From: Thermoproteota archaeon
GTDB lineage: Archaea > Korarchaeota > Korarchaeia > Korarchaeales > Korarchaeaceae
Direction: 5' to 3'
Length of the DNA stretch: 43,600 bases
Assembly (NCBI GenBank): GCA_027491415.1
Contig: JAOZFH010000006.1
Span: 1 to 43,600 of the forward strand
Translations under genes and position numbers: made by a program
The notes under the pieces: model-generated
What the model was told of the DNA's origin: nothing
Database searches by the model: none
What the model saw: only the letters and a program-made list of their open reading frames with translations
In this document: positions 13,915-43,600 of the stretch, piece by piece
How the letters are laid out: each line of letters begins with the position of its first letter
Position numbering within the stretch: the stretch's first letter is position 1

Positions 13915-13979
13915 GACGGCGTCCCCCCGCAGCCGGCACCAATAAAACGCTGGGGACGACCCTCTTTGCATCTCCGAGT

Positions 13980-23512: not shown

Positions 23513-24136
23513 ATGGCAACCGTCCCTCCGAGCTACCTGGAATACCTCATCTACGTCGACCCTGAGAGGTGCGTGGGATGTAGGAGCTGTGAGATAGCCT
23601 GCGCGGTCGAGCATTCCTCCTCGAAGGAGCTGTTTCAGGCCGTCTTCGAGGACCCTGCGCCCAGGCCGAGGACGAAGGTCGTCCCGGCAGCCGGCGTTTA
23701 CGTCCCCATGAGGTGCATGCACTGTGATCCGGCCCCCTGCGTCGAGGCCTGCCCTACGGGGGCCATGCACAGGACGGACGAGGGCTTCGTCGTATCCGAC
23801 CTCGAGAAGTGCATAGGGTGCAGGACCTGCCTCCTCGCCTGCCCCTTTGGCCACCCGACCTACGACTTTAGGAGGAAGGTGGTGAAGTGCGACCACTGCG
23901 TTGACAGGTTCCGCGTTGGACTACCGCCAGCGTGCGTCGAGGCCTGCCCGACGGGGGCCCTGAGGTACGGCAGGGCGGAGGACATCTTGGACAGGGAGAA
24001 GATCAGGAGGGCCGCGGAGATGGTGCTCGGACTTGCGGAGGCGGCCGTGGTGTACGCCAAGCCCGCCGAGAGGGCTCCCAGGTCCCCCCTGGCATCTCTC
24101 AGGGAGATGTATGAGGCCGTGAGGTGGTCAGAATGA
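23513..24136 (+). CDS. cooF: CooF-type 4x[4Fe-4S] electron-transfer protein
   Basis: CVGCRSCEIAC, CMHCDPAPCVEACP, CIGCRTCLLACP and KCDHC..PACVEACP; ATGA overlap with cooS. Confidence 0.9.
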   Translation: MATVPPSYLEYLIYVDPERCVGCRSCEIACAVEHSSSKELFQAVFEDPAPRPRTKVVPAAGVYVPMRCMHCDPAPCVEACPTGAMHRTDEGFVVSDLEKCIGCRTCLLACPFGHPTYDFRRKVVKCDHCVDRFRVGLPPACVEACPTGALRYGRAEDILDREKIRRAAEMVLGLAEAAVVYAKPAERAPRSPLASLREMYEAVRWSE

Positions 24137-26091: not shown

Positions 26092-26894
26092 TGGCCTTGC
26101 CCCTCAGGGTTCTCGTGGCCGGGAAGGGAGGGGTGGGCAAGACAACGGTGTCCGCCCTCCTCTCTCACTTTTTGCGCGACAGGGGTATGAGGGTCCTGGC
26201 GGTCGACGCCGACTCCGTTCCAAACCTGGGTATAGCGCTGGGCCTACCACCCGAGGTCGCGGGTTCCATAGTTCCCCTCGTGAGGAACGAGGAACTCGTG
26301 GAGCAGAGGACGGGCGCCCGACCCGGCCAGGCTTGGGGGGTCCTGTTTCGAGTCAACCCCAGGGTCGACGACCTGGCGGAGAGGTACGGGGTGAGCGTGG
26401 GAGGCGGCCTGAGCCTGCTGGTCGTGGGCAGCATAGACGCAGCCAAGCAGGGCTGCCTCTGTCCAGCAATTGCGCTGGCAAAGAGGCTCCTGAAGCACCT
26501 GGTCTCCTCCACCGACGAGTCGTCGGCGGTGATCGTGGACTCGGAGGCCGGAGCGGAGGTATTCGGCCGGGGGCTCGCCGAGAACTTCGATCACATGGTG
26601 TGCGTCTCCGAGCCCACGGTGGCCTCACTGGACATCTCCAAGCGCCTCCTCAGGATGGGCCGGCAGCTCGGGATCCGCGAGTTCTCCCTCATCGTCAACA
26701 AGATGCCTGAGAGAGGCGAGTCGCTCAGGGAAGCCATAGAGAGAAGGTTCTCCGGTGAGGCCAGGGCGTTTTTCGTCCCCAGCGACCCCGAGGTCCTGAG
26801 GGCGAGCATCGAGGGTAGGGGGGTGGGTACCCTCCCAGTCGACTCTCCAGCGGTCTCGGCCCTGAGGCGGACCTTCTCTGAACTGTTCGGGTGA
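26091..26894 (+). CDS. cooC: CODH nickel-insertion ATPase
   Basis: GKGGVGKTT, VDADSVPNL, GCLCP and DSEAG.E.FGRG motifs; TGATG overlap with cooS. Confidence 0.95.
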   Translation: MALPLRVLVAGKGGVGKTTVSALLSHFLRDRGMRVLAVDADSVPNLGIALGLPPEVAGSIVPLVRNEELVEQRTGARPGQAWGVLFRVNPRVDDLAERYGVSVGGGLSLLVVGSIDAAKQGCLCPAIALAKRLLKHLVSSTDESSAVIVDSEAGAEVFGRGLAENFDHMVCVSEPTVASLDISKRLLRMGRQLGIREFSLIVNKMPERGESLREAIERRFSGEARAFFVPSDPEVLRASIEGRGVGTLPVDSPAVSALRRTFSELFG

Positions 26895-26898
26895 TCAA

Positions 26899-28878
26899 AT
26901 GGAGTCGTCGGAGCCCAGGGTCGGAGTCTACGTCTGTCACTGCGGCAAGAACATCGCGGGCAAGGTGGATGTGAGGAGGGTGGCCAAGGAGGCTGGAAGG
27001 CACCCGAGAGTAGCCGTCTCTAGGGACTACTTCTTCATGTGCAGCCGGGCGGGGCAAGAGCTCATCAAGAGGGATGTGGAGGCGGGTAAGGTGGACAGGG
27101 TGGTCGTGGCGGCGTGCAGCCCCAAGCTCCACGAGCCCCTCTTCAGGAGGGTCGTGGTCGAAGCGGGCCTCAACCCCGGTTACATGGAGCAGGTGAACAT
27201 AAGAGAGCTGGTCTCCTGGTCAACCGAGGACCCCGAGGAGGCGACTCAGAAGGCCATCAGGTACGTCTTGGGGGGCGTGGAGAAGGTCCTGGCGGCTGAG
27301 CCCATCGAGGTTGGGGAGGCAGAGGTCGTTCGGGAGGCCCTAGTCATCGGAGGCGGGGTCGCTGGCCTCGCCGCGGCCTTGGACCTGGCGGAGAAGGGAA
27401 TCAGGGTTCACCTGGTGGAGCGCTCACCCACGGTGGGTGGGCTCATGGCCCTCTTGGACAGGGTGTTCCCGACCGGCGACTGCTCCCTGTGCATCCTGAC
27501 GCCCATGATGGCCGAGGCCGAGGCCCACCCACTGATCGACATCCACACCACCTCGGAGGTCGTTGAGGTATCCGGCTCGATCGGGGACTTCCGGGTGAGG
27601 GTGAGGAGAAGCCCCAGGTACGTGGATCCAGAGAAGTGCGTGGCGTGCGGGGTATGCGCCTCCAAGTGTCCTGTCGAGGTCCCGAACGAGTGGGACGCCC
27701 TCCTCGGCAAGAGGAAGGCCGCCTACATCCCGTATCCTCAGGCCACGCCGAGGGCCTACGTGATAGACCCGAACGCGTGTCTCTTCATCAGGGAGGGGTC
27801 CTGCGGGGCCTGCGTCGAGGCCTGCCCCACGAAGGCCATAGACCTCCACGAGGTGCCGCGGGAGTTCGAACTCAGGGTGGGGGCCATCGTGGTCGCAACC
27901 GGCGTCAGGGAGTACGACGCATCCAACCTCAAGAACTACGGCTTCGGGAGAATACCGGACGTGATAACCCAGCTCGGATTCGAGAGGCTGATCAACGTGA
28001 CGGGGCCCACCGGGGGGCACCTGAGGAGACCCTCGGACGGCAAGGTGCCGAAGAGAATAGTGTTCATACAGTGCGCCGGAAGCAGGGACGTGAACCACAA
28101 CCCCTACTGCTCGGGAGTGTGCTGCATGGTCTCGCTGAAGCAGGCCGAGATCGTGAGGTCCGAGTATCCGGACTCCAAGGTCTACATCTGCTACATCGAC
28201 ATGAGGACTGCGAAGAAAGGATTTGAGGAGATGTACGAGCGGGTCAGACGAGAGGGGGTAGTCTTCGTCCAGGGGAAGCCAGGGGAGGTCTGGAGGGACG
28301 GCGATGAACTAGTGGTGGAGGTGTTCGACAAGACCCTCGGCAGGAAGCTGGAGCTCAGGGCGGACCTCGTGGTGCTGGCCGCGGGATTGTCCCCGTCGGA
28401 GGGCACCCTGAAGGTTAGGGAGGTGCTCAACGTGGGAGCGGATCTCCACGGGTTCCTCCAGGAGCTCCACCCCAAGCTGAAGCCTGTGGAGACCTCTAGG
28501 CCGGGAATTTTCATCTGCGGTGGAGCCCAAGGCCCCAAGGACATCCCAGATTCGGTCGCTCAGGCGAAGGCGGCCGCCAGCGCTGCGGCTACAGTACTGG
28601 TGAGGGGGAGGGTTGAGGTCACCGGGGAGAGGGCCTACGTGGACCCGGAGCTGTGCGTCGGCTGCATGGCCTGCGCCGACGAGTGTCCGTTCGGGGCCAT
28701 CGTGGAGAGGGAAGGCAGGGCGGAGGTTGTCCCGGCCGCTTGCGCCGGCTGTGGAATCTGCCAGCCCGTCTGCCCGACCGGCGCGATAACCAGGAGGGCC
28801 TACGGGGTCGAGCAGGTGATGAGGCAGGTGGCCGGCCTCTTGGAGGCCGCGCCGACCTCGCGCGCGGGGGAGGTGTAG
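26899..28878 (+). CDS. hdrA: Heterodisulfide reductase subunit A (electron-bifurcating flavoprotein)
   Basis: GVYVCHCG, AACSP, GGGVAG, FPTGDCSLCILTP, inserted and C-terminal ferredoxin domains, QCAGSRD..YCSGVCC, GPKDIP. Confidence 0.96.
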   Translation: MESSEPRVGVYVCHCGKNIAGKVDVRRVAKEAGRHPRVAVSRDYFFMCSRAGQELIKRDVEAGKVDRVVVAACSPKLHEPLFRRVVVEAGLNPGYMEQVNIRELVSWSTEDPEEATQKAIRYVLGGVEKVLAAEPIEVGEAEVVREALVIGGGVAGLAAALDLAEKGIRVHLVERSPTVGGLMALLDRVFPTGDCSLCILTPMMAEAEAHPLIDIHTTSEVVEVSGSIGDFRVRVRRSPRYVDPEKCVACGVCASKCPVEVPNEWDALLGKRKAAYIPYPQATPRAYVIDPNACLFIREGSCGACVEACPTKAIDLHEVPREFELRVGAIVVATGVREYDASNLKNYGFGRIPDVITQLGFERLINVTGPTGGHLRRPSDGKVPKRIVFIQCAGSRDVNHNPYCSGVCCMVSLKQAEIVRSEYPDSKVYICYIDMRTAKKGFEEMYERVRREGVVFVQGKPGEVWRDGDELVVEVFDKTLGRKLELRADLVVLAAGLSPSEGTLKVREVLNVGADLHGFLQELHPKLKPVETSRPGIFICGGAQGPKDIPDSVAQAKAAASAAATVLVRGRVEVTGERAYVDPELCVGCMACADECPFGAIVEREGRAEVVPAACAGCGICQPVCPTGAITRRAYGVEQVMRQVAGLLEAAPTSRAGEV

Positions 28879-28881
28879 CGG

Positions 28882-29793
28882 ATGACCTCAGGATCAGAGT
28901 CGCCCGAAGGACCGAAGAAGCTCGTCGTCGGCTTCTGCTGCAACGAGTGCGCCTACGCGGCCGCCGACCTCGCGGGGAGCACGCACCGCACCCACCCGCC
29001 CAACGTGCTCGTGGTGAGGGTCCCCTGCTCGGGCGCGGTCGACCCGAGCTGGCTCCTCTACGCGCTGGCCAACGGTGCGGACGCGGCCTTCGTGGCCGGG
29101 TGCAGGAAGGGGGAGTGCCACTACGTGGACGGGAATCTGAAGGCCGAGAGCAGGGTGAGCTTCCTGAAGTCGCTGCTGGATGCCGTCGGGGTGGAGCCGG
29201 AGAGGGTGGAGATGTTCTTCATGGCCGCCTCCGAGCCCCACAGGTTCGTCGAGGCCGCCAGGGAGATGGCCGCCAGGGTGGAGGCGCTACCCCCACTCCA
29301 CCGGAGGGAGAGCGTGCCTGTGGGCCCCAAGAGAGAGGCGCTAATCCGCGCCCTTCAGTCCATCGCCGTGGAGGTTAGGGACGTCCCGCTGCCGGCGATA
29401 CCAGGGTTCGAGGTGCCCGTGTTCGACTTGGACAGGTGCATCGGCTGCGGGGCCTGCATCGAGGCCTGCCCCGAGGGTGCCATTCACTCCGAGGATCGCG
29501 GCGACTTCAGGGTGTTCCTCCTGTCCGCCCTCAAGTGCACCGGCTGCGGGGACTGCGTGGACGCCTGCCGGGAGAACGAGGTCGAGGCGCTCTCGCTCGG
29601 CGGGGTGAGGGTCCCACAGCTCCTGAGCGAATGGAGTGAGGTGGCTAGGCTTGAGCTGACGAGGTGTTCGGTCTGTGGGAGGCCGTTCGCCACGGATCGC
29701 GAACTCGAGAGGGCCGACTCACCTCCGATCTGCCCTGAGTGCAAGGCCAAGGCCTCTGCCAAGGCGATATCCTTTGGGAGGGTGAGATTGTGA
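28882..29793 (+). CDS. mvhD: MvhD-type [2Fe-2S] protein fused to a 2x[4Fe-4S] ferredoxin and a CxxC..CxxC tail
   Basis: GFCCNECAYAAADLAG, RVPCSG, GC..GECHY..GN; then CIGCGACIEACP, CTGCGDCVDAC and CSVC..CPEC. Confidence 0.9.
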   Translation: MTSGSESPEGPKKLVVGFCCNECAYAAADLAGSTHRTHPPNVLVVRVPCSGAVDPSWLLYALANGADAAFVAGCRKGECHYVDGNLKAESRVSFLKSLLDAVGVEPERVEMFFMAASEPHRFVEAAREMAARVEALPPLHRRESVPVGPKREALIRALQSIAVEVRDVPLPAIPGFEVPVFDLDRCIGCGACIEACPEGAIHSEDRGDFRVFLLSALKCTGCGDCVDACRENEVEALSLGGVRVPQLLSEWSEVARLELTRCSVCGRPFATDRELERADSPPICPECKAKASAKAISFGRVRL

Positions 29794-30272
29794 GCCTAGC
29801 GAAGCGCGTGCTCGAGATCTCCGGCCAGGACGTGACGAAGTGCTTCCAGTGCGCGGAGTGCACGTCCTCGTGCCCCAGCGCCGGGCTTGACGGCTTCTAC
29901 CCCCACAGGCTGATCAGGGCTATCCTCTTGGACCTGAGGGATGAGGTGTTTCGCGGGGATTACAAGCTGTGCATGCACTGCCACCTCTGCTCAGTCCGGT
30001 GCCCCGTGGGGCTGAACTTTCCAGAGGTTGCCATCGCGCTGTCCAACGTAGAAACCAAGGAGAGAGGCCCGGATAATGTGGAGCGGGCTTTCATCTCTGA
30101 ACTGAGCAAGAGAGCTTTTGTTAACCCTGCGAGGGTGGCGCTGTCCGCTCTGGGAGTTCGAGCTCTTGCGCTGGCTGGCCTACGCGGCCTGAAGCTGGCC
30201 GGCATGCTCGCCGAGTCCGGGTCGGTGAGGGAGGAGTACAGGCGGGAGGTGGCGAGGGTTGTCAGGGGATGA
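29790..30272 (+). CDS. hdrC: Heterodisulfide reductase subunit C
   Basis: CFQCAECTSSCP and CMHCHLCSVRCP; GTGA overlap with mvhD. Confidence 0.9.
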   Translation: MSLAKRVLEISGQDVTKCFQCAECTSSCPSAGLDGFYPHRLIRAILLDLRDEVFRGDYKLCMHCHLCSVRCPVGLNFPEVAIALSNVETKERGPDNVERAFISELSKRAFVNPARVALSALGVRALALAGLRGLKLAGMLAESGSVREEYRREVARVVRG

Positions 30273-31017
30273 GGTGGCCTACTATCCGGGATGCTCCGCG
30301 CTGACCACGGAGAGGCCCTACCTGAGGACCGCCGAGGTAGTGCTCGAGAGACTGGGCGTGCCCCATCGCCTAATAGACGACGCGCCCTGCTGCGGGACCG
30401 TCGAGCTGGAGATGGTGGACAGGCGGGCCTCTCGGAGGGTAGCGGAGATCGTCGCGGAGGTGGCGGACGGGGCGACCCTCGTCACAGGGTGTTCCGGGTG
30501 CTATGGGACCCTCAGGAGAAGTGGAGTCGGAGTCACGCACCTGATCGAGTTCCTCGGCAGGAGGGTCGGGGCAGAGGAGATTGCAAGGAGGGTGGTCAGG
30601 AGCTGGCCCGTCAAGGTCGCCCCCTACTACGGCTGCCAGGCACTGAGGCCGAGAGAACAAGCCATCGATGACCCCGAGGATCCTCAAATCCTGGAGGAAC
30701 TCATGGCGGCCATCGGCGCCGAGCCCGTGGACTTCAGGATGAGGATCAAGTGCTGCGGCGGACCGATTCTCCTCCGCCGGCCCGAGTATGCCAAGCAAAT
30801 GGCCAGATCCGTTCTGGAGTCGGCCAGGGAGGCAGGGGCGGAGTGCGTTGTCACCATATGCAACCTCTGCCACTTCATGCTGGACTTCTACGGGGGAGGG
30901 GTCCTACCAGTGCTCCACGCGACCCAGCCGATCGCCTACGCTCTCGGGGAGCCCGTCGATGGTCTGGGGCTCGAGGAGCACTTCACTCCCGTACCCGGGG
31001 GGCTGTTCCACCCGTGA
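30259..31017 (+). CDS. hdrB: Heterodisulfide reductase subunit B
   Basis: Two CCG domains: YPGC..CCG..CSGC and YYGC..CCGG..CNLC. Confidence 0.92.
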   Translation: MSGDEVAYYPGCSALTTERPYLRTAEVVLERLGVPHRLIDDAPCCGTVELEMVDRRASRRVAEIVAEVADGATLVTGCSGCYGTLRRSGVGVTHLIEFLGRRVGAEEIARRVVRSWPVKVAPYYGCQALRPREQAIDDPEDPQILEELMAAIGAEPVDFRMRIKCCGGPILLRRPEYAKQMARSVLESAREAGAECVVTICNLCHFMLDFYGGGVLPVLHATQPIAYALGEPVDGLGLEEHFTPVPGGLFHP

Positions 31018-32438: not shown

Positions 32439-33431
32439 GTGAACCTTCTGGACCTCGTTCTGTCTAGGGAGAAGAGGATGGCCGCTCCTCTCGTTACCTA
32501 TCCCGCCCTAAAGCTACTCGGGGCTGATGTAGATCAGGCCCTCGGCGATCCCGAGATCCACTCTGAGGCGGCTAAGCTGACTCTGACCGAGTTCGGCTTG
32601 GACATGATGCTACCGCTGATGGACCTCACTGTCGAGGCTGAGGCGATGGGAGTCAAGGTAAGGATGTCGCCAACGGAAGCGCCGACGGTGGTTGAGCACC
32701 TCTCGATGGAGGAAGCCTTGGCCATGGCTATTGCCAACCTCCCCGACCCTGAGAGGGATGCCAGGTTTCCGGACTTCCTCAGGGCGGCCGAGCTGATGAG
32801 GTCGAAGTGCCCAAGGGAGATCCCGCTTGGGTTCTACCTGCTAGGTCCTTTCACCTTGGCGGGGCAGCTGGTCGGCGTCACAACCCTCCTCAAGGCAGTC
32901 AGGAGGGATCCCGAGTCAGTTTCGCAGCTCGTTGAGATGTGCACGGAGGTGCTGGCTAGGTACGCGGATGGCCTGGCTCAGCGAGGGGTTGACTCTCTAG
33001 TTATGGCGGAGCCCACGGCGGGGCTCGTCTCGAGAGAGGACTACGTCAGGTTCTCCGGGAATCCCACTGCTGAGCTCACGTCTCGAGTTCCGTCTCAGTG
33101 GATCCTCCATATCTGCGGCAGGTCGGGGCACCTCGTGGACCTAATGGCTCAGACGGGGGTGGTCGGGGTGAGCTTAGATCACAATGTGGATCTCTTAGAG
33201 GCCGCCGAGAAGGTGTCGGACGAGATACTGCTCGTCGGGAACTACTCGCCGGTGAAGGTCGCAATGGAATCCGCAGACGTGATCAGGCAAGAGGTAAGGG
33301 ATCTGTTAGAGAGGCTCTCGTCCATTCCAAACCTGATATTCAGCACAGGGTGCGACGTGCCAATGAGGGCCCCGCTAGAGAACGTGAAAATTCTAGCGGA
33401 GGTCGCGCACGAGTTTTCCCAGCCTTCCTGA
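32439..33431 (+). CDS. UroD/MtaA-CmuA family methylcobamide:thiol methyltransferase (MT2)
   Basis: DLTVEAEAMG, GPFTLAG, Zn ligands LHICG and STGCDVP; corrinoid gene context. Confidence 0.88.
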   Translation: MNLLDLVLSREKRMAAPLVTYPALKLLGADVDQALGDPEIHSEAAKLTLTEFGLDMMLPLMDLTVEAEAMGVKVRMSPTEAPTVVEHLSMEEALAMAIANLPDPERDARFPDFLRAAELMRSKCPREIPLGFYLLGPFTLAGQLVGVTTLLKAVRRDPESVSQLVEMCTEVLARYADGLAQRGVDSLVMAEPTAGLVSREDYVRFSGNPTAELTSRVPSQWILHICGRSGHLVDLMAQTGVVGVSLDHNVDLLEAAEKVSDEILLVGNYSPVKVAMESADVIRQEVRDLLERLSSIPNLIFSTGCDVPMRAPLENVKILAEVAHEFSQPS

Positions 33432-33614: not shown

Positions 33615-34562
33615 TCACCGGAGCCTCTTGTACGGCTTCCCCAGTGACGCGGGACCCTTCACACCCCTGCCCACGATCACCAGCGCTATCAGGGTCAGCA
33701 GATAGGGGAGCATCAGGGCGAACTGATAGGGGAACCACGCAAGTGTGAGCAGACCGCTCGCTTGGATCCGTAGCTGGAGCGAGTCAGCGAACGCGAACAG
33801 CAGAGTACCTAGAGTCATCTTCAGCGGGTCCCACCTGCCTAGGATTATCATGGCTATCACGATGAATCCCCGGCCAGCGGTCATGTTGTCGAGGAACATG
33901 TTGTACTGGGAGATCGACAGCAGTGCTCCGGCCACACCTCCTAGCGCGCCCTCCGCTAAGAGGGTGAGATATCTGAGCCTCACGACGTCGACTCCTAGGT
34001 AGTCAGCCACCTGTGGATCCTCTCCCGACGCGGTTATCTCGAGGCCTACCCTGGTCCTCGCTAGCACGAAGTAGAGCAGCGGGATGCTGAGCAGCGCGGC
34101 GTAGGTGAAGGCGGTCTGGTTGAAGAGCACCGGGCCTATCACGGGTATAGAGCTAAGGAGGGGAATCGGGGTCTCCCTGATGACAGTCGTCACGTGCGGT
34201 GGAACGGGGCTCGTGTACCAGCCGAATATCGCCCTGTACAGGTAGAACGTCGCTCCAGACGCCATCAGCGTCAGCGCCAAACCCGTCACAACTTGGTCGA
34301 GTGCGAGAGAGACCGTCATGAACCCAAAAATCGCGTTGGCAGCCATCCCCACCAGAATGGCCGCCAGGACTCCAATCCACGGGCTCCCCGTGTAGTACGT
34401 GACGATGAATCCGGAGAACGCGCCGAGGAGCATGATGCCCTCGAGCCCGAGGTTCAAGATGCCGCACCTCTCCACCAGGATTTCCCCAGCCCCCGCCAGG
34501 AGGAGCGGGGTCATCACCCGCACGGCAGCCCTCATAAGGTCGATCGCCATCTCAATCGGCAC
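33615..34562 (-). CDS. ABC transporter permease (nucleoside/purine CUT2 type)
   Basis: ERCGILNLGLEG, GE.P..AD..G, GRGFI and LPYLLT motifs. Confidence 0.9.
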   Translation of the reverse strand: MPIEMAIDLMRAAVRVMTPLLLAGAGEILVERCGILNLGLEGIMLLGAFSGFIVTYYTGSPWIGVLAAILVGMAANAIFGFMTVSLALDQVVTGLALTLMASGATFYLYRAIFGWYTSPVPPHVTTVIRETPIPLLSSIPVIGPVLFNQTAFTYAALLSIPLLYFVLARTRVGLEITASGEDPQVADYLGVDVVRLRYLTLLAEGALGGVAGALLSISQYNMFLDNMTAGRGFIVIAMIILGRWDPLKMTLGTLLFAFADSLQLRIQASGLLTLAWFPYQFALMLPYLLTLIALVIVGRGVKGPASLGKPYKRLR

Positions 34563-35601
34563 TCTCAACCACCTCCTTACGGAAGATCCTCTCACTGATC
34601 GGTTCGCTGGCGACGGCGAACACTATCACGAGCCCCTGTATCAGGTAGGCCATACCCACGGGGATGTGAGCCATGCGGTGCATCGTGTAGCTCCCGTTAA
34701 TTACCGCGCCCATGAAGATGGAGGCCAGAAGGACGCCAACGGCGTTCAGGTTCCCCAGGAGCGCCACTGCGATTCCCGTGAACCCGTATCCCGGAGAGAG
34801 CTCCATCCTCATCTTGTGTTGTATGGCGGAGACCTCGATTCCACCCGCTAGGCCAGCGAGGAGGCCGCTGATAAGCATGCTCAGGACCACTATACTCCCT
34901 ATGTCCGTCCCCGAGTACCGCGCGGCCTCCGGGTTGGCGCCCACGAGCTTGAGCCTGAATCCGAAGGTCGTCTTCTCCCTCAGGAAGTGGACTATGGGTG
35001 TTATCACTAGGATGGCCACCAGGATCCCAAGGTGGAGCCTCACACCCTGGACGAGGCGGGGCATCCAAAGTGACTGAGGTAGAGTTGGCGACTCCGGGAA
35101 CTGGGACACCGGGTCCCTTAGCGGACCCGTGAGGAAGTAGCTAACGAGGTAGAGGGCGATGTAGTTCATGATCACGGTGGTGAAGATCTCGTTGATCTCG
35201 TACTTGGCTCTGAGAACCGCGGGGATGAGCGCCCACGCGGCTCCGGCTAGGGCCGAGGAGAGGAGCATCACAGTGAGGCCGACGGAGCTGGGCAGCCCCC
35301 CTAGGGAGAGGCCGACCCACGCTGCAACGAGCCCGCCCATGTAGAGCTGACCCTCAGCTCCTATGTTCCAGACCCTGGCCGTGAACGCCACGGCCAATCC
35401 GAGACTCACCAGCAGGATCGGCGTGGCCCTGACCAGCGTCTCTACAGCCGTTACGGAGTTCCCGAACGCCCCCTTTACGAACATGTAGTAGTAGGCCCTC
35501 ACCGGGTTGGCGCCCGCCAGCCCGATGAACAGGCTCGCCGTCAGGAGCGCCAGGCCTATGGCAATCAGGGAACCCAGCACCCTGCTAAGCCTGAGGGCCA
35601 T
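34552..35601 (-). CDS. ABC transporter permease (nucleoside/purine CUT2 type)
   Basis: WNIGAEGQ, GANPEAARYSG and GYGFTGIAVALLG motifs. Confidence 0.9.
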   Translation of the reverse strand: MALRLSRVLGSLIAIGLALLTASLFIGLAGANPVRAYYYMFVKGAFGNSVTAVETLVRATPILLVSLGLAVAFTARVWNIGAEGQLYMGGLVAAWVGLSLGGLPSSVGLTVMLLSSALAGAAWALIPAVLRAKYEINEIFTTVIMNYIALYLVSYFLTGPLRDPVSQFPESPTLPQSLWMPRLVQGVRLHLGILVAILVITPIVHFLREKTTFGFRLKLVGANPEAARYSGTDIGSIVVLSMLISGLLAGLAGGIEVSAIQHKMRMELSPGYGFTGIAVALLGNLNAVGVLLASIFMGAVINGSYTMHRMAHIPVGMAYLIQGLVIVFAVASEPISERIFRKEVVESAD

Positions 35602-35623
35602 CAGGCTCTCTCCACCATCGACG

Positions 35624-37153
35624 CTATCGCCCAACAACCTCACCTCCCAGCATGTAGGTACCTATCTCCTGAGCGGTCATCTGGCCAGCAGGCCGTATCG
35701 CAACCATCCTCCCGTCGTACATCACCCCTATCACGTCGCTGAGCTCGAGGATCTCATCCAGATCGGTCGACACGAGGAGTATGGCCGCACCGCCATCCCT
35801 GAGTCTTATCAGCATTTCCCGGACGAAGTTCGTCGACTTCACGTCCAGCCCGGCGGTCGGGTTCTCGGCGACGACGAGGCGTGCGTTCATGGAGAGTTCC
35901 CGCCCGACGATGAGCCTCTGGATGTTTCCGCCGGAGAGATACCTGACGGGGATGTCGATTCCTGGACACTTCACCTTGAATGTCTCGACGATCTTGGAGC
36001 AGAACTTCCTCAGAACCTCCCCCTTGATAATCCCCCGTTCACTGAAGGGGTTAACCCAGAACCTCTTCAAGGCGGAGTTGTCTACTACCGGGAGATCGGC
36101 CGCCACACCCCTTTCTATCCTCTCCTCCGGGATGTACGCCATCCCCATCTCTATGAGCTCGGAGACACTTCTCCCGGTGATATCCTGCCCGATAAACAGT
36201 ATGCGGCCGGACTTGACCGGCCTGAGTCCTGTTATGGCCTCGACCAACTCCTTCTGACCGTTACCCTCTATCCCGGCTATCCCGAAGATCTCCCCCTCGT
36301 GCACCGTAAAGGAGACTCCCTTCACCGCCAGCCCGCCCCGGTCCCCCTCCACCCGAAGGTTCTCAACCCGCAGGATCTCCTCGGCCGTCTCCTTAGGCTT
36401 CGCCCTCTCTACGCGAGTGGGTGCCACACGCTCTCCGACGACCAGCGCGACGAGTTCTTTGTCGTCCACCTCCTCCGGCTTTACCCGCGCCACGACCCTG
36501 CCCTTTCTCATCACGGTGATCCTATCGCTGATGGAGAGGGCCTCCCACATCTTGTGTGTCACGAACACGACAGACTTGCCCTGCTCTACCATGCTCCTGA
36601 GGGTCTCAAACAGGGCCTCGACCTCAGGCACCGCGAGTATTGAGGTGGGCTCGTCGAAGATGAGGACGTCGGCGTTCCTGTAGAGCAGCCTTAGGATCTC
36701 GACCCTCTGCTTCTCTCCCGCTGAGAGCTGGTCTATCTTGGCTTCTGGATCTACTTTGAGCCCGACGCTCTCTGAGAGCTCTCTGATTCTTTCTTTCGCC
36801 TCCTCTAGGTTGAGGAGGTGCGGGAGGTCGCTCATCCCCAGAATGATGTTCTCTGCCACAGTCAAGTTGGGAATTAGGGTGAAGTGCTGGTGGACCATCC
36901 CTATCCCAAGGTTCATAGCATCTCTGGGGCTCCTGATGTCCACCTTCCTGCCCTTGACGTAGATCTCGCCCTCATCCGGCCTGAGGCATCCTGCGAGAAT
37001 TTTCATTAGAGTGGTCTTGCCAGCGCCGTTCTCCCCCAGCAGGGCGTGTATCTCCCCCCTCCTCAGGTCGAAATCGACCCCCCTGTTGGCCACGACCCCG
37101 CCAGGGTACACCTTCACGATTCCCTTCATCAGAACGACTTCTTCTGTGCCCAT
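35624..37153 (-). CDS. ABC transporter ATP-binding protein, tandem-domain CUT2 type
   Basis: GENGAGKTT, GMVHQHF, DEPT and LSGGNIQ motifs. Confidence 0.93.
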   Translation of the reverse strand: MGTEEVVLMKGIVKVYPGGVVANRGVDFDLRRGEIHALLGENGAGKTTLMKILAGCLRPDEGEIYVKGRKVDIRSPRDAMNLGIGMVHQHFTLIPNLTVAENIILGMSDLPHLLNLEEAKERIRELSESVGLKVDPEAKIDQLSAGEKQRVEILRLLYRNADVLIFDEPTSILAVPEVEALFETLRSMVEQGKSVVFVTHKMWEALSISDRITVMRKGRVVARVKPEEVDDKELVALVVGERVAPTRVERAKPKETAEEILRVENLRVEGDRGGLAVKGVSFTVHEGEIFGIAGIEGNGQKELVEAITGLRPVKSGRILFIGQDITGRSVSELIEMGMAYIPEERIERGVAADLPVVDNSALKRFWVNPFSERGIIKGEVLRKFCSKIVETFKVKCPGIDIPVRYLSGGNIQRLIVGRELSMNARLVVAENPTAGLDVKSTNFVREMLIRLRDGGAAILLVSTDLDEILELSDVIGVMYDGRMVAIRPAGQMTAQEIGTYMLGGEVVGR

Positions 37154-37214
37154 ACCCACTCACCGGAGCGGCTGAGCGGTTTTATCTGGAAAAAGGGGGT
37201 GGTGAGAGGGATTT

Positions 37215-38240
37215 TTACCCTCCACCAGCCCAGCGCTCGGGATCCCAGTCCTCGTAGATGGGGACTTGGATCTCGCCGTTGAGTATCTTCTGCTGGGCTT
37301 CTTCCACAGCTGCAACGACGTCCTGTGGGATCTGCTTCTTGAGGGTCGGATTCCAGACGAGCTTAGCCCACCCCTCTTTCATGCCCCAGTTGATTATCCC
37401 TCCGTGGAATGTGCCAGCCCTCACGGAGTCCACCACGTAGCGAACGAACGGCTTGAGATCCCAAGTAACGCTTGCGATGACCACATCCGGCGCGAGGTCG
37501 GTCTGGTTGACGATGTTACCGATCGCGTAGCCCTCGACGCCTGCCTCCTTGAAGGCCTCGAAGACACCGTACCTCTCTGCGTAGATCACGTCGGCTCCAG
37601 CCTCTATCTCGGCGAGGGCCGCCTCTTTAGCCTTGACCGGATCAAACCAACTCTCGAGGAAGATCACCTTGATCTCCACATCCGGGTTGACCGACTTGGC
37701 CCCTGCGCAGAACGCGTTGACGAGCCTGTTGACGTCGGGCACCGGGTATGCCGTGACCACGCCAATGACGTTGGTCTTCGTGAGCTTACCGGCTAATACT
37801 CCAGCCAGGTAAGCCGCGTCCTGGATCCAGTAGTCGTACAGCATCACGTTGGGCGGCCACTCGACGTCTGTGGGGCCAGAGCCTTGGGCGAAGTACACGT
37901 TCGGAAACTCCTTGGCCAGCTTTCTGGTTACCTCGTTGTACCCCCAGCTGTGGGGAAATATCACCTGATATCCCTCGGCTATGTACTCCCTTATCACCCT
38001 CTCCACGTCCGCCGTGTCCACCTTCTCCGTGTAGACGTACTCGATGTTCAGCTCCTGCTCGGCCCAGGTCATAGCCTCGTGCAGGGCAGTGTTCCAAGGC
38101 TCCTCTATGGGGGTCACGTAGATGACAGCCACCTTGAGCTTCTCCTCCTGGGGCGCTGAACCCTTGGTTGCAAAGTAGGCCCCGGCGGCCACCAAAACTA
38201 TGAGGACGGCCACAATAATGCCCAAGTACCTGCTACTCAG
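37215..38240 (-). CDS. BMP-family substrate-binding protein
   Basis: N-terminal TM anchor, AYLAGVLAG, NAF.AGA and WFDP.K.KEAA motifs; start is CTG 38240 (good SD) or TTG 38225. Confidence 0.9.
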   Translation of the reverse strand: MSSRYLGIIVAVLIVLVAAGAYFATKGSAPQEEKLKVAVIYVTPIEEPWNTALHEAMTWAEQELNIEYVYTEKVDTADVERVIREYIAEGYQVIFPHSWGYNEVTRKLAKEFPNVYFAQGSGPTDVEWPPNVMLYDYWIQDAAYLAGVLAGKLTKTNVIGVVTAYPVPDVNRLVNAFCAGAKSVNPDVEIKVIFLESWFDPVKAKEAALAEIEAGADVIYAERYGVFEAFKEAGVEGYAIGNIVNQTDLAPDVVIASVTWDLKPFVRYVVDSVRAGTFHGGIINWGMKEGWAKLVWNPTLKKQIPQDVVAAVEEAQQKILNGEIQVPIYEDWDPERWAGGG

Positions 38241-38394: not shown

Positions 38395-40344
38395 TCAGAC
38401 CAACCTCGACTTGAGCTTCTCCAATAGGTTCTTGTGCCTATCGGCGACGACGAGGCCGTCCATCTTCTCCACAACCTCTTGGAAGCGGAACAGGTCAAGG
38501 TGAGGCAGGTACATAGAGGCCATGAACTCCTCTTGGAACCTGGGATGAGCCGCCAGTTCATAATACCTGATCTTCTGCGCGATTTCCCAGCACTCTCTTC
38601 TCTTGTCGATTGATATGAGAGCAACCCTTGCTCCTACACCAGCAGCGTTTCCCACCTGCGTTATCTTCTCCAGTGGAAAGTCTGGCAGCATCCCGATCCT
38701 CTTGGCGCTGGCTGGGTCGATGTAGAGCCCAAACGCCCCTGCCATGAACACCCGCTCCACGTCCTTCACAGAAACCCCCATTTCGCTCATGAGGATCGAG
38801 GCCCCGGTGTGCATGGCCGCCTTCGCCTTCTGGAGCTCTCTGACGTCCCGCTGCGTGATCACTATATCCTTCCCAATTGCCGTCTCGTCTGCAAAGGCCA
38901 GGATGAACTCCATTCCGTCTGGTCCCTTTCTGATCCTCTCATGCTCGCGCTCCAGTATCTTGCCGGTCGTGTCTATCACTCCGGCGCTCAACATCTCTGC
39001 TAGGGCGTCCACGATGCCCGACCCACAGATCCCCTTCGGGCTCACCCCGTCTACCACAGAGTATTTCACGTCGAGGGTGTTGGGGTCGATCCACACCCTC
39101 TCGATGGCCCCTGAGGTGGCCCTCATCCCGAACTTTATGTGAGCTCCCTCGAAGGCCGGCCCGGATGCGCAAGAGACCGCGTGCATCTCATCCGAATTTC
39201 CTATCACGATCTCTGTGTTAGTACCCACGTCTATCATGAAGGAGAGTTCGCTTGACAGGTGAATTCCCGTGCTGAGCACATCAGCCACAGCGTCCGCCCC
39301 AACAAAGCCGGCGACGTTGGGCAGCAGGTGAACGTTTCCAGTTGGGAGCATCTCCACTCCAAGGTCACAGGCCCTAACATCGAGCGGGCTGTCGATCACT
39401 GGGGTGTAAGGCGCCTCAGCCAAGTCACGGGGGGGGAGACCCAAGAAGAGGTGGTGCATGAGCGTGTTGCCAGCCACTACGAGTTCGACGACCAGCCTCG
39501 GGTCGACTCGGGCAGACTCGCAGGCCTCACGAATGAGGCCGTTGATTCCCTGAATGATCACCCTATGAAGCTCTCTGAACCCCTCTTCCGTCCTGCTGTG
39601 AGCTATCCTGGCGATGACGTCTTCTCCAAACGGAATCTGTGGGTTGGGAGCGGAGGAGACGGAGACCAGCTCGCCGCTCCGCAGGTCCACTAGATAGCCC
39701 GCCAGCTTTGTCGTCCCTATGTCTACGGCGAATCCGTAGAGTCTCTCATCTTCTCCCGGTCTCACGTCTAGCAACCCGACATCCGTATGCCACACTATCG
39801 TGACGGTCCAGTTTCCCTTCTTGACGGCACGTGGGAGGTACCTCAGCACACGCAGATCCGCCCGAAGGCTTCCTTTGTGGGGGAGTTTACTGATCAGGCG
39901 TTCGAAGTGAGCCCTCGGGTCGCTGAGACTGGGCTTTGGGAGCTTTAGAACAGCGATGTGGGCGGCAGGGTTGAGCTCGACTTCTACATGCTTGCCCTCA
40001 ACAAGCAACCTCTGCCTCCCGCTTCTACTCTGCTCCGGAACTTCCACGACAACCTTTCCCCTGCCAGAGAACCTGGCCTGGCACGCCAGCCTGAACCCGG
40101 CCCTCAGCTCACCTGGTTCCAGGTACCTCTCTTCGCTAGAGCTTGGAGGGCTCAGCAACTCTCTCCCCTCTCTGATTATCACCTTGCACTTCCCACAGAG
40201 TCCGAGTCCTCCACAAATTGACGTTATATCGACTCCCAGGTCTTTAGCGGCCTCCAAGATGGTTTTGTCAGTAGAATACCACCCTCGGCGGCCTTCAGGT
40301 TGAAAAATGGCTAGGAGACCCCGTTTCTTGGTTGGATAATCCAT
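38395..40344 (-). CDS. ASKHA-type reductive activator of corrinoid proteins (RACo/DUF4445) with N-terminal [2Fe-2S] domain
   Basis: CGGLGLCGKC..RLACQ, DIGTTK, GFVGAD, DVGTNTE, GPAFEG, GICGSG, AGAFG and GNAA motifs. Confidence 0.93.
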   Translation of the reverse strand: MDYPTKKRGLLAIFQPEGRRGWYSTDKTILEAAKDLGVDITSICGGLGLCGKCKVIIREGRELLSPPSSSEERYLEPGELRAGFRLACQARFSGRGKVVVEVPEQSRSGRQRLLVEGKHVEVELNPAAHIAVLKLPKPSLSDPRAHFERLISKLPHKGSLRADLRVLRYLPRAVKKGNWTVTIVWHTDVGLLDVRPGEDERLYGFAVDIGTTKLAGYLVDLRSGELVSVSSAPNPQIPFGEDVIARIAHSRTEEGFRELHRVIIQGINGLIREACESARVDPRLVVELVVAGNTLMHHLFLGLPPRDLAEAPYTPVIDSPLDVRACDLGVEMLPTGNVHLLPNVAGFVGADAVADVLSTGIHLSSELSFMIDVGTNTEIVIGNSDEMHAVSCASGPAFEGAHIKFGMRATSGAIERVWIDPNTLDVKYSVVDGVSPKGICGSGIVDALAEMLSAGVIDTTGKILEREHERIRKGPDGMEFILAFADETAIGKDIVITQRDVRELQKAKAAMHTGASILMSEMGVSVKDVERVFMAGAFGLYIDPASAKRIGMLPDFPLEKITQVGNAAGVGARVALISIDKRRECWEIAQKIRYYELAAHPRFQEEFMASMYLPHLDLFRFQEVVEKMDGLVVADRHKNLLEKLKSRLV

Positions 40345-40417
40345 CCAACCATCGTTATGGTTCAACTAACTATAATAGTTTGATCCCCTTGCCCCCGGTA
40401 GGCAGGGTGGGTCTGCC
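40345..40417. promoter_or_regulatory. Divergent promoter region with two short palindromes
   Basis: AACCAT-cgtt-ATGGTT (40347-40362) and AACTAT-a-ATAGTT (40368-40380). Confidence 0.5.
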
Positions 40418-41074
40418 ATGAGTGAGGGGGAGGCTATCCTGAGGGGTTTAGCCGAGTCTGTGATCGATGGCGACGAGGACCGCGCGCGGGAGTTTGCAAA
40501 GAAAGCGGTCGATGCCGGGATAGACCCGCTGACAGCGATAAAGGAGGGTCTCATGAGTGGCATGAAGGTGGTCGGCGACCGGTTCTCCCGGCTTGAGATC
40601 TTCCTTCCCGAGGTTCTTCTCGCCGCAGACGCCATGAAGGCGGCTCTTGAGATTCTGGAGCCGCTCATAGTGAAGGAAGAGAGGGAAAAGCTCACGCTGG
40701 GTAAGGTGGTCATAGGCACAGTGCAGGGCGACATCCACGACATCGGGAAGAACATCGTGGCCATGCTGCTGAAGGCGAACGGCTTCGAGGTTTACGACCT
40801 CGGCAGAGACGTTCCAATAGACGAGTTCATCAACAAGGCCGAGGAGGTCGGGGCAGACATAATCGCGATTTCGACCCTCCTGTCGACCTCAATGCCGTAC
40901 ATGGAAGATGTGATAAGGCTCCTGAAGGACAGGGGGCTTAGAGAGAAGTATAAGGTTATGGTGGGCGGAGGTCCCGTCACGAGGGAATTCGCGGAGGAGA
41001 TAGGAGCGGACGGGTACGGGGACAACGCCGAGGAGGCCGTCGAGGTGGCCAAGAAGCTCCTTGGGAGGGCGTGA
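40418..41074 (+). CDS. Methyltransferase cognate corrinoid protein (MtmC/MtbC/MttC family)
   Basis: FLPEVLLAADAM cap, GDIHDIGKNIV (DxHxxG), DLG.DV and MVGGGP motifs. Confidence 0.95.
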   Translation: MSEGEAILRGLAESVIDGDEDRAREFAKKAVDAGIDPLTAIKEGLMSGMKVVGDRFSRLEIFLPEVLLAADAMKAALEILEPLIVKEEREKLTLGKVVIGTVQGDIHDIGKNIVAMLLKANGFEVYDLGRDVPIDEFINKAEEVGADIIAISTLLSTSMPYMEDVIRLLKDRGLREKYKVMVGGGPVTREFAEEIGADGYGDNAEEAVEVAKKLLGRA

Positions 41075-41077
41075 AAA

Positions 41078-42448
41078 ATGGTGCTCTCCATCTGGGAAGT
41101 GCTGGACCTGGCCGAGAGCGGCCCCTACATGAGCGAGAGAGACTTCGACCTCAAGGTCGTCGCGAGGCTCTGCAGGGAGCTGGTCAAGGAGTACGACATA
41201 AGGTACGACCCAGAGCAGATAGTGACGAGCGACGACAGCCTCGCGGACGATGTCTTCGAGGCCGGCTTCAGGCTCGCCGTAGAGACTGGAATTTACTGCA
41301 TCAACACGAAGAGGATCATAAGATTCACGGAGGAGCAGATCAAGGAGGGCATCGAGTCGGCGCCTGAGCAGATAACTGTCGGGTGGGGCAAGGACGCGAG
41401 GGTCCTCTACGCGAGGAAGGTAGAGGACTCCAGGTACCCCATCATAATGGGCGGCCAGGCTGGGGCGCCGATACCGGAGGAGTTCCACCTCCCGATGGCC
41501 ATGTCATACATTAAGGAGCCCCTGATAGACACGATAAACCACGGCGGGCTAGCGGTGGTCGAGGGAAGAAAGGTCAAAACCGGGAGCCCGCTCGAAGTGC
41601 AGGCCACTAGGAGGGAGCTTCGGAACCTCAAGGAGGCGGCCAGGAGGGCCGGTAGACCAGGCATACACTTCTTGGCGGGGGAGAGCAGCAACACCTGCAT
41701 CGGGGACCTGGCGATTGCCTCCGACGAGTACATGCAGACCACGGACGCCCACCTCATTGCTATCCTAAACGAGCTGAAGACGGACTACGACAGGCTGACC
41801 AAGGCAGTGAACTTCACGGAGTACGGGGCCATGAACGTGACCCTGGTGGACCCAATCATTGGTGGCTACGCTGGGGGACCGGCCGGTGTTGCTGTGAACT
41901 TCGTCGCCTCGTTCCTGCTGGGGAGGCTCCTTTACCAGTCGGTGTACCACATATGCCATCCGATCCACTACAAGATCGTGAGCACCAGCGCCCCGGAGGG
42001 CATGTGGGAGCTCAGCGTCGTCGGTCAGGCGATGGCCAGGCACACCCCATTCATAATCATGGGGGACGTATGGACGTCGGCCGGCGCCGGGACCGAGATG
42101 ATATTCTACGAGATCACGGCGAACACGGTCACGAACGTCGTGACCGGCACGCACCCGCTGGGCGTCTCGGCCACCAACGGCACCTACCCGAACGCCAGCG
42201 GCCTGGAGACGAGATTCATGGCCGAGGTGGCTAGGGCCACCGTGAAGGCGGGCCTGAAGAGGTCGGAGGCCAACGAGATCGTGCTAGAGATGCTTAAGAG
42301 GTACAAAGACAAGCAGGAGAAGCCGGACATAGGGAAGCCGTTCCCAGAACTCTACGACGTGGCCACAGTGACCCCCAGGGAGTGGTGGCAGGACCTGTAC
42401 AACAGGATGAAGTCCGAGATCGCCACCCTGACGGGCCTCCCGCTCTGA
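41078..42448 (+). CDS. mtmB: MtmB-family corrinoid methyltransferase without pyrrolysine (paralog 1)
   Basis: DDSLADDVFEAG, AGRPG, LNELK, PIIGGYAGG, G.E.RFM.EVARA and GK.F.E.YD..TVTP motifs; no in-frame TAG. Confidence 0.9.
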   Translation: MVLSIWEVLDLAESGPYMSERDFDLKVVARLCRELVKEYDIRYDPEQIVTSDDSLADDVFEAGFRLAVETGIYCINTKRIIRFTEEQIKEGIESAPEQITVGWGKDARVLYARKVEDSRYPIIMGGQAGAPIPEEFHLPMAMSYIKEPLIDTINHGGLAVVEGRKVKTGSPLEVQATRRELRNLKEAARRAGRPGIHFLAGESSNTCIGDLAIASDEYMQTTDAHLIAILNELKTDYDRLTKAVNFTEYGAMNVTLVDPIIGGYAGGPAGVAVNFVASFLLGRLLYQSVYHICHPIHYKIVSTSAPEGMWELSVVGQAMARHTPFIIMGDVWTSAGAGTEMIFYEITANTVTNVVTGTHPLGVSATNGTYPNASGLETRFMAEVARATVKAGLKRSEANEIVLEMLKRYKDKQEKPDIGKPFPELYDVATVTPREWWQDLYNRMKSEIATLTGLPL

Positions 42449-42476
42449 TCCGCCCATCCACGACGTGGTGATCCTC

Positions 42477-43600
42477 GTGAAGAACAGGATGCTAGATATC
42501 GAGGATAAGGCATTCAGGAGCGGCCCCTACTGCGAAGAGAGAGAGTTTGACAGGATGATGATCCGCCGAATAAGGGAGCTGGTCAAGGAGTACGACATAA
42601 GGTACGACCCAGATCAAGTGATTCCCAGCGACGACAGCCTCGCCGACGCTGTCTTCGAGGCCGGCTTCAGGCTCTTCCTCGACCTGGGCGCCTACTGCAT
42701 GGAGACCAAGAGGAGGATACTGTTCACCGAGGAGGAGGTCTGGGAAGCCCTGCGTCAGCTCCCGGAGCACTATGTCATGGGAGAGGGGAAAGACCGCATT
42801 GTGATGAGGGCTCGGAAGCCAGAGGATCCAACCCCTCCGGTCCTGCACGGCGGTCCAACCGGCACGCTCTGCTCTGAGGGCGACGTTTACCTCAAGACCC
42901 TCATCTCATACGCCAAGGAGCCGGTGGTCGACTCCCTAGGCGCGGGATCCCTCAGGACCGTGAACGGCGTCGTCATCAGGACCGCCTCGCCACTCAACTT
43001 TCGGGCCGCCAGGATCGGCGCCGAGATGGCCAGGGAGGCCCTCATCCGGGCCGGAAGACCCGGTCTGCACATAAACGACGTCGCCGTGGTGGTCCCCGAG
43101 GCCAAGCTCGCCGCCCTAGATCCACACAGGGGGATAAGGCCCTCTGACGGTCTTCTAGTCTCCCAAATGGTCGAGCTCAAGGTGAGCCTCCACCACCTGT
43201 CCCTGGTGGAGCACCTGCTGGCCTACGGGTGCTTCATCAGCGACCTGATGACGCCAATTCAAGGAGGATACGCAGGCGGGCCCGAGGGAACCGCCATCGT
43301 GACGGTCGCGGAGCACCTCCTGGGCCTAATGTGCTACCACGCGGAGTATCACTTCCTCAGCCTCACGCACATGCTGACACTCAATAACACGGACAGGGGT
43401 GGCCTCTGGATAGTCAGCATCGTAGGCCAGGCGCTGTCTAGGAACACTAGGATACTGAGCGCCTACGACTGCTACGTTAGCTCGGGACCGGGAACTGACA
43501 TGATACTGAGGGAGGTGGCCGCGGGGGGTATAACGGCCTCCGTGAGCGGAATCCACCTTGAAGGAGTCGGGTCCGCCGGAGGTAAACTAGTTGACCACGC
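42477..43600 (+). CDS. mtmB: Second MtmB-family methyltransferase without pyrrolysine, 3' partial (absent from the ORF track)
   Basis: Manual translation from GTG 42477 (GGTGA SD) is open to the window end: DDSLADAVFEAG, AGRPGLHINDV, MVELK, PIQGGYAGGPEG. Confidence 0.88.
   Translation, partial: MKNRMLDIEDKAFRSGPYCEEREFDRMMIRRIRELVKEYDIRYDPDQVIPSDDSLADAVFEAGFRLFLDLGAYCMETKRRILFTEEEVWEALRQLPEHYVMGEGKDRIVMRARKPEDPTPPVLHGGPTGTLCSEGDVYLKTLISYAKEPVVDSLGAGSLRTVNGVVIRTASPLNFRAARIGAEMAREALIRAGRPGLHINDVAVVVPEAKLAALDPHRGIRPSDGLLVSQMVELKVSLHHLSLVEHLLAYGCFISDLMTPIQGGYAGGPEGTAIVTVAEHLLGLMCYHAEYHFLSLTHMLTLNNTDRGGLWIVSIVGQALSRNTRILSAYDCYVSSGPGTDMILREVAAGGITASVSGIHLEGVGSAGGKLVDH

Follow-up and report, generated by a model that had tools for sequence, protein, structure and literature searches.

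According to the textbook view, methylamine methyltransferases need pyrrolysine (Pyl). What two adjacent genes of the MtmB family might do when they encode ordinary residues in its place is the question raised by one end of a 43,600-nucleotide stretch of DNA (hereafter the window, which is a single whole contig, C22) from a korarchaeial archaeon (assembly GCA_027491415.1, contig JAOZFH010000006.1). The two genes, P1 (41078–42448) and P2 (42465–43600), lie on the forward strand directly behind a corrinoid protein gene (40418–41074), in the order corrinoid protein, P1, P2. The analysis points to a module that is real, intact and conserved, and whose two predicted enzymes belong to a known, barely studied group and not to a new kind of system. 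With about even confidence, at least one of them is taken to have protonated monomethylamine (MMA) as a true substrate, demethylated without Pyl.

P1 encodes 456 residues and matches Pfam family PF05369 at 360 bits (E 2.3e-107; positions 2–447 of the profile), against a cut-off of 25 bits; its match to the solved MtmB of Methanosarcina barkeri (1L2Q) has an E value of 7e-71. P2 encodes 378 residues within the window, where it is open at the contig end, and matches the same family at 271 bits (E 2e-80; positions 8–369). P2 is intact in the organism: contig C41, whose start overlaps the window by 16 bases, supplies the C-terminal 84 residues, with profile positions 370–450 at C41:9–251, and a database protein 99% identical to P2 (P0121) bridges the junction of the two contigs. 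The true start of P2 is probably GTG 42465, GTG 42477 or ATG 42489, as judged from the N termini of orthologs. Neither reading frame contains an internal stop, and no NCBIfam model matched P1 or P2 at E ≤ 0.01.

Searches of the PDB with phmmer gave, for both proteins, alignments to M. barkeri MtmB (1L2Q, 1NTH and 1TV2; E 3e-56 for P2 with 1TV2) that are ungapped in the region of the active site. The X that represents Pyl202 in the M. barkeri chain lies opposite Leu199 in P1 (codon TTG, 41672–41674; motif GRPGIHF-L-AGE) and opposite Asn204 in P2 (codon AAC, 43074–43076; motif GRPGLHI-N-DVA), and the in-frame UAG at position 202 that marks a Pyl-dependent MtmB occurs in neither gene. No RNA run with this DNA was among the sequencing runs listed, and one DNA run holds 0.05 of the sampled words; 0 of its 27 pieces were at least 99% alike, which marks it as a relative, and the one contig over the place of 41672 (473 bases) showed 61 differences. 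Near the Pyl column, E205 and H228 are retained in P1 and replaced by Ala and Leu, respectively, in P2; the E229 and E259 columns hold Leu in both proteins (the motifs corresponding to the latter read TLVDP in P1 and DLMTP in P2), and the Q333 column holds Asp in both. Residues E205, E229, E259 and Q333 of M. barkeri MtmB reportedly play roles towards Pyl, as described by Hao and colleagues; among the acidic partners E205, E229 and E259, P1 keeps E205 alone and P2 keeps none. An earlier note on this DNA had read the same open reading frames, motifs and codons from the letters, with Pyl and the E259 equivalent missing from both proteins and E205 present in the first alone, and the alignment agrees with it on each of these points and places the Pyl column where the note had put it; only the note's word 'lose' goes further than these sequences, among which no Pyl-type member was available to root a tree. 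A comparison with a structure model, which the note had also proposed, was run for P1: the AlphaFold2 model (pLDDT 92.5) superposes on 1L2Q with a TM-score of 0.95 and a root-mean-square deviation of 1.8 Å at 31% identity, and P1 is accordingly modelled with the TIM-barrel fold of M. barkeri MtmB.

The remodelled active site is not peculiar to the window but a conserved property, family-wide, of two enzyme types. A total of 236 Pyl-free sequences were aligned, comprising 232 database proteins of at least 400 residues, P1 and P2 of the window, and two proteins of Methanosuratincola petrocarbonis LWZ-6; the set excludes seven database proteins of fewer than 400 residues as well as P0001, whose sequence is that of P1. 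The FastTree phylogeny of these sequences, midpoint-rooted and without Pyl-type members, falls into halves of 115 and 121 tips. P1 of the window clusters with a paralog in the same genome (on contig C12) and with P1 of LWZ-6 in one 28-tip clade (support 0.988), and P2 clusters with its LWZ-6 counterpart in one 27-tip clade (support 0.992). The earlier note had called the two genes tandem paralogs; they belong to two deeply separated subfamilies, each of which holds bacterial and archaeal members, and did not arise by local duplication. When the sequences were sorted by the residue at the G203 column, plus two more columns for the P1 type (defining columns that do not count as results), 113 were assigned to the P1 type and 122 to the P2 type, close to the halves of the tree. 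The E259 column is Leu in all 236 sequences and the E229 column is hydrophobic in 235. Among P1-type proteins, H228 is found in 108 of the 113, Asp at the M261 column in 86, Asp at the Q333 column in 105 and Trp at the Y335 column in 86. P2-type proteins have His197 and D226 without exception (122 of 122 each); 119 of them carry Thr at the M261 column, 108 carry Asp at the Q333 column and 116 carry Tyr335. Site residues that are strongly conserved yet different in the two subfamilies argue that both consist of active enzymes.

The Pyl column was also inspected in the fetched loci, where a motif pattern that missed some P2 copies returned 43 instances: Ile in 17, Leu in 13, Asn in 11, and Lys and Val in one each, with TAG in none of the 43. 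P1 orthologs carry Ile or Leu, encoded by ATA, ATT, CTN or TTR, and all 11 P2-type instances carry Asn (AAC or AAT). None of the loci contains a Pyl-type MtmB, and all MtmB-family matches in the genomes are free of internal stops. Three of the 113 P1-type proteins (P0046 and relatives) have a genetically encoded Lys at the Pyl column; the instance from an Ignisphaera sp. genome that was assembled from a metagenome (MAG; L029, minus strand, around position 13975) uses the codon AAG in the motif GRPGMPIKAGE, a plain-lysine form of the Pyl site.

The genes beside the pair complete an MT1/corrinoid protein/MT2 set, and the window is predicted to hold the complete corrinoid methyl-transfer system of this archaeon. 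The corrinoid protein (218 residues, forward strand) combines a B12-binding_2 cap with a B12-binding domain (PF02310, PF02607) and is of MtxC type (TIGR02370, 237 bits against a cut-off of 215 bits). Since it is the sole MtxC-type corrinoid protein of the genome, with the single PF02607 match, P1 and P2 must share it, as the earlier note had supposed. The divergent gene on the reverse strand (38395–40365) encodes a RACo/RamA-like reductive activase with a 2Fe-2S ferredoxin domain and an ASKHA ATPase (PF14574, PF17651, PF17650, PF00111), whose matches to the NCBIfam models AcsV and RamA fall below cut-off. The candidate for the methylcobamide:thiol methyltransferase (MT2) is a protein of the MtaA/CmuA family with the URO-D fold (32439–33431, forward strand; PF01208, E 4e-64), which scores 165 bits against TIGR01463, below the cut-off of 235, and is encoded by the only URO-D family gene of the genome (a single match). 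Between the activase and MT2 candidate genes, on the reverse strand (33615–38225), Pfam matches define an ABC importer of the BMP/PnrA type, with permeases at 33615–34595 and 34552–35643, an ATPase at 35624–37159 and a binding protein at 37215–38225.

Comparison with 29 related loci, carried out by tblastn with the window proteins, revealed the order corrinoid protein-P1-P2 in 20 of them. Two further loci have P1-P2 at the start of a contig, which brings the strict tandem to 22 loci overall; L028 holds a rearranged version of the cluster, and six loci have the corrinoid protein and P1, or P1, with no P2 match, two of them (L030 and L035) ending within P1. The BMP-type importer adjoins the cluster in 21 of the 29 loci, and 6 of the other 8 are too short to tell; a different ABC system stands beside the cluster in two loci of Chloroflexota. 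By name, the hosts are Methanomethylicia/Methanosuratincola, 'Desulfurococcales' MAGs, Ignisphaera and Chloroflexota. P1-type genes next to a corrinoid protein gene and without a P2-type gene occur in Chloroflexota (L032, L033), Ignisphaera (L027, L029) and relatives of the same genus as the window's host (L044).

Two of the related loci lie on complete chromosomes, those of M. petrocarbonis LWZ-6 (L031) and M. verstraetei LCB70 (L014), and the former offers a link to physiology. The corrinoid protein, P1 and P2 of LWZ-6 are 68, 71 and 61% identical to those of the window. In both chromosomes the tandem pair, free of internal stops, provides the sole PF05369 matches; PylD, MtbB and MttB were not found in either genome, and the best score against the PylS model was 22.6 bits, compared with a cut-off of 178. 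MtaB is present in LWZ-6. As far as the available text of the report on this strain goes, LWZ-6 reduces methanol and MMA with H2, the latter to methane, and does not use dimethylamine (DMA), trimethylamine (TMA), betaine or methanethiol; MMA was supplied at 10 mM, and that text makes no mention of tetramethylammonium or choline among the substrates (PMC12244365). Pyl is described, in the part of the source at hand, from methyltransferases of Methanosarcinales and Methanomassiliicoccales only (PMC6421429), and a 2019 genome paper is quoted as judging amine use by Verstraetearchaeota unlikely for want of Pyl (PMC6783470, in part). Because LWZ-6 has no other genes of MtmB, MtbB or MttB type, the orthologs of P1 and P2 are the only recognisable candidates for the use of MMA by this Pyl-free organism, as far as its gene content can tell. 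No publication linking the use of MMA in Methanosuratincola to Pyl-free MtmB was found within the literature searched. The proposal of the earlier note that the enzymes act on substrates other than methylamine is therefore only partly upheld: both enzymes do lack Pyl and their sites differ, but LWZ-6, with an orthologous pair as its sole MtmB-family set, does reduce MMA. LWZ-6 has four corrinoid proteins in total. Two of these have other neighbours than the cluster (L053 and L054; C1:1257851–1259559 and C1:292950–295369): one is found behind a URO-D gene (MtsA/MtsB-like) and is followed by a 558-residue open reading frame without a Pfam match, and the other near an MtrH-like gene.

The host of the window differs from these methanogens. 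Its genome (1.78 Mb, 96% complete) is archaeal, with proteasome genes and 12 intron-bearing tRNAs, and belongs to a GTDB phylum in which 6 of 43 species have any MtmB-family match. For its RuBisCO, the named sequences that match best come from a 'Thermoproteota archaeon' (95%) and a 'Candidatus Korarchaeota archaeon' (86%). PylD, PylS and a tRNA with the CUA anticodon were not found in the 96%-complete genome (pylB and pylC were not searched), nor were McrA, MtrH, CdhC and MtaB; its sole pterin-binding protein is dihydropteroate synthase, and no pterin-type methyltransferase was detected in it. Members of the MttB superfamily (PF06253/COG5598) are absent from this genome as well as from LWZ-6 and LCB70. 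Culexarchaeia carry MttB and MtrH (PMC9723716), neither of which was found in the genome of the window, and were for this reason rejected as its lineage. Since McrA, MtrH, CdhC and a pterin-type methyltransferase are missing, the methyl group could, by this inventory, pass only to a thiol-type acceptor. The proteasome and TatD proteins of the host are 34–43% identical to those of LWZ-6, compared with 61–71% for the corrinoid protein, P1 and P2, and this far greater similarity suggests that the module was acquired by lateral transfer. A third Pyl-free MtmB-like gene of the genome (C12:813–2195) is of the P1 type, 62% identical to P1, with Ile at the Pyl column, and is solitary, without a neighbouring corrinoid gene. 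Its orthologs in genomes of the same genus show 82–86% identity, and the one in L044 stands behind RamA-like and corrinoid genes. From this distribution, the corrinoid protein-P1-P2 set of the window looks like an addition to, or a replacement of, a resident system.

The importer provides a further view of the substrate. The best PDB match of its binding protein (37215–38225) is the guanine-binding protein AtzT (6PI5, E 6.9e-48), followed by 3S99; the accessible part of the source gives a dissociation constant of about 110 nM for guanine in AtzT and an adenine modelled in 3S99 (PMC6834077). Contact residues of AtzT were mapped on the alignment with a chain-index offset of +5, which held for every contact position that was mapped. 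In the window protein, Ser97 and Trp194 of AtzT are retained, Phe98 is matched by Trp, Glu165 by Asp, Asn218 by Glu, Asn220 by Tyr, and Gly-Tyr45 by Trp-Asn. The resulting signature W-N-S-W-D-W-E-R-Y is shared by the window and 15 of 16 cluster-adjacent binding proteins of other loci, including those of LWZ-6 and LCB70, although several of these loci are close relatives and not independent; the protein of L022 deviates at one position. As the signature is identical despite an overall identity of only 39–74%, the importer appears to carry one ligand that has been kept across lineages. That ligand is predicted not to be guanine, because the residues that read the guanine edge differ from those of AtzT (Glu for Asn218, Tyr for Asn220 and Asn for Tyr45). 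A planar cationic heterocycle would suit such a box of Trp and Tyr with its two carboxylates, and so, equally, would methylammonium or a quaternary amine; since the pocket suits either, the importer does not decide between MMA and a heterocycle. A second BMP-type importer of the genome, on C41, has a differing signature, W-T-S-F-E-W-D-S-P, and is not conserved in the other loci.

Several characterized systems resemble the module in part. The Pyl-dependent MtmB/MtmC of M. barkeri (1L2Q, 1NTH, 1TV2) shares with it PF05369, the TIM barrel, an MtxC-type gene immediately upstream, with genes for a RamA-like activase and an MtaA-like methyltransferase close by; unlike M. barkeri MtmB, the window has Leu or Asn at position 202, hydrophobic residues at E229 and E259 and Asp at Q333, in a host without PylD, PylS, tRNA-CUA and McrA. 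The cluster of LWZ-6 and LCB70, whose enzymes bear the name 'monomethylamine:corrinoid methyltransferase' by annotation only, has the same gene order, clades and importer signature as the window. Its hosts are MCR-bearing, methyl-reducing methanogens with MtaB and MtaC, whereas the host of the window lacks McrA and MtaB, and an activase gene and an MtaA-like gene stand beside the cluster in the window and in the 'Desulfurococcales' MAG loci L023, L024 and L028 but not in LWZ-6 or LCB70. MtqB/MtqC of Methanococcoides methylutens Q3c, with which the pair was compared by description only, likewise pairs an MtmB-family enzyme that lacks Pyl with the corrinoid protein encoded next to it. The available portion of a 2026 paper reports that it demethylates tetramethylammonium and choline with little activity on MMA, that no Pyl-free MtmB had been shown to have a function before, the remaining ones being 'of unknown function', and that MtqB has a conserved Met-Cys pair and is placed near the Pyl-MtmBs (PMC13044021). 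The Pyl-free enzymes MtgB, MtcB and MtpB of the MttB superfamily (PF06253) follow a similar logic with permanently charged N-methyl substrates, and the analogy that the earlier note drew to such quaternary-amine enzymes is possible; they nevertheless form a different family, as P1 and P2 match PF05369 only and the P1 model reaches a TM-score of only about 0.5 with MttB and MtgB. At the level of sequence the pair is no novelty: homologs of MtmB without Pyl were recognised years ago, and genes of the P1 and P2 types are already annotated in public MAGs. What the window adds is the system in compact and complete form in an organism that is not a methanogen, defined residue sets for two subfamilies, and a conserved importer, from whose ligand the substrate should become apparent, so that either MMA demethylation without Pyl or a different substrate becomes testable.

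From the family, fold, site residues, synteny and gene inventories we infer the following scheme for substrate, chemistry and methyl sink. Each MtmB-like enzyme would bind a small N-methylated cation. In the proposed pocket, hydrophobic residues stand in place of Pyl, E229 and E259, and carboxylates and an aromatic residue are conserved instead: the P1 type has E205 and H228, with Asp in columns M261 and Q333 and Trp in column Y335, and the P2 type has H197 and D226, with Asp in columns G203 and Q333 and with Tyr335. The methyl group would be offered to the Co(I) of the shared corrinoid protein and then be handed to a thiol by the MtaA-like enzyme, with the activase repairing oxidised Co(II) and a dedicated BMP-type importer as part of the system. 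P1 is the likelier MMA enzyme because it retains E205 and H228, and would in that case transfer the methyl group of MMA independently of Pyl; a second specificity may reside in P2. This scheme is favoured by the use of MMA in LWZ-6, where the pair provides the sole PF05369 genes and where the window proteins have their counterparts in the same clades, and by the MMA demethylation, to some extent, of the Pyl-free homolog MtqB in vitro, as given in the accessible text (PMC13044021). Several points weigh against it. Growth of LWZ-6 at 10 mM MMA could be explained by a side activity, and its extra corrinoid proteins and 558-residue reading frame leave room for an MMA enzyme that has escaped recognition. 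The closest solved members of the importer family bind guanine or adenine and not small amines; the host, without McrA, MtrH, CdhC and a pterin-type methyltransferase, leaves the use of an MMA-derived methyl group unexplained; and identity to the LWZ-6 proteins from which the argument is drawn reaches only 71% for P1 and 61% for P2. Moreover, all MMA methyltransferases known to us need Pyl.

The main rival is a tentative alternative, in which the methyl groups natively come from heteroaromatic bases that are N-methylated and imported, resemble purines and probably carry a positive charge (such as N7- or N1-methyl purines), P1 and P2 demethylate two positions or two bases, and the use of MMA by LWZ-6 is a side activity at millimolar concentration. 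The importer beside most clusters fits it, given its solved relatives AtzT (guanine) and 3S99 (adenine modelled), its one signature across loci and the retention of Ser97 and the base-stacking Trp194; the pocket would have room for a substrate larger than MMA once Pyl is removed, and for the fermentative MCR-free archaea among the hosts, base salvage is more sensible than methyl use. But the changed guanine-edge residues, a Trp/Tyr box whose Asp and Glu also suit methylammonium or a quaternary amine, and the fact that LWZ-6 does use MMA all count against it, and we know of no N-methyl purine:corrinoid methyltransferase. The SsnA-like aminohydrolase and PreA-like genes near P2, considered as a sign of base catabolism, were dropped from the argument, as neither was found in the other related loci and no conserved link to base catabolism is left. 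In its narrower form, a corrinoid demethylase system that acts on imported, cationic purine-type bases and has one enzyme for each of two N-methyl positions, the proposal is rather doubtful; if true, methylated bases would be a substrate class new to the MtmB family and, in Methanomethylicia, methane precursors of a new class, and an MCR-free host would pass the methyl group to a thiol and discard it, salvaging the base. It is improbable that the two enzymes instead demethylate one polymethylated amine in succession through the shared corrinoid protein, as the earlier note had suggested (tetramethylammonium, choline, or TMA to DMA to MMA). The single corrinoid protein, the two differing active sites and the use of tetramethylammonium and choline by MtqB are compatible with such a series, yet the available text on MtqB puts its clade near the Pyl enzymes in a tree legend (PMC13044021). 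Because P1-type genes stand by a corrinoid protein without a P2-type gene in the five loci from Chloroflexota, Ignisphaera and same-genus relatives, the two do not form an obligate two-step pair; no evidence for sequential demethylation was found in this analysis, and LWZ-6, which has the same pair and does not use DMA, TMA or betaine (PMC12244365, in part), argues against the series from TMA. A mixed oligomer of P1 and P2, with catalysis confined to one subunit and the other serving to bind the substrate or the corrinoid protein or to regulate, would agree with the strict tandem in 22 loci and with membership of both in one fold family, but it is very improbable, as each subfamily keeps its own invariant polar site residues and P1-type genes are solitary in several lineages. 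M. barkeri MtmB is a hexamer. Demethylation of MMA by at least one enzyme of the pair, with P1 as the better candidate, remains the preferred explanation.

Further genes were noted around the module. Upstream of it, a 407-residue reading frame (22223–23446) joins a radical SAM domain to a helix-turn-helix of LysR/AsnC type at the C terminus and lies just upstream of CooF/CooS genes; the region 23513–31017 encodes a CooF-like ferredoxin and the catalytic subunit of an anaerobic CO dehydrogenase (24124–26091; TIGR01702, 770 bits), followed by HdrA2-like, MvhD/FlpD-ferredoxin, HdrC-like and HdrB-like genes (26899–31017). Directly downstream of the tail of P2, C41:437–10960 encodes an SsnA-type aminohydrolase (553 bits, above cut-off), the second BMP-type importer, a ferredoxin with an aldehyde:ferredoxin oxidoreductase (AFOR), and a PreA-like protein with DHO_dh and 4Fe-4S domains. 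Genes for a 4Fe-4S ferredoxin and an AFOR are also located 0.2–5 kb upstream of the corrinoid gene in ten Methanosuratincola-type loci (L011, L013–L017, L020, L022, L030 and L031), and the genome of the window has at least eight AFOR-like tblastn matches, two of them within the window (5361–7298 and 11106–12941).

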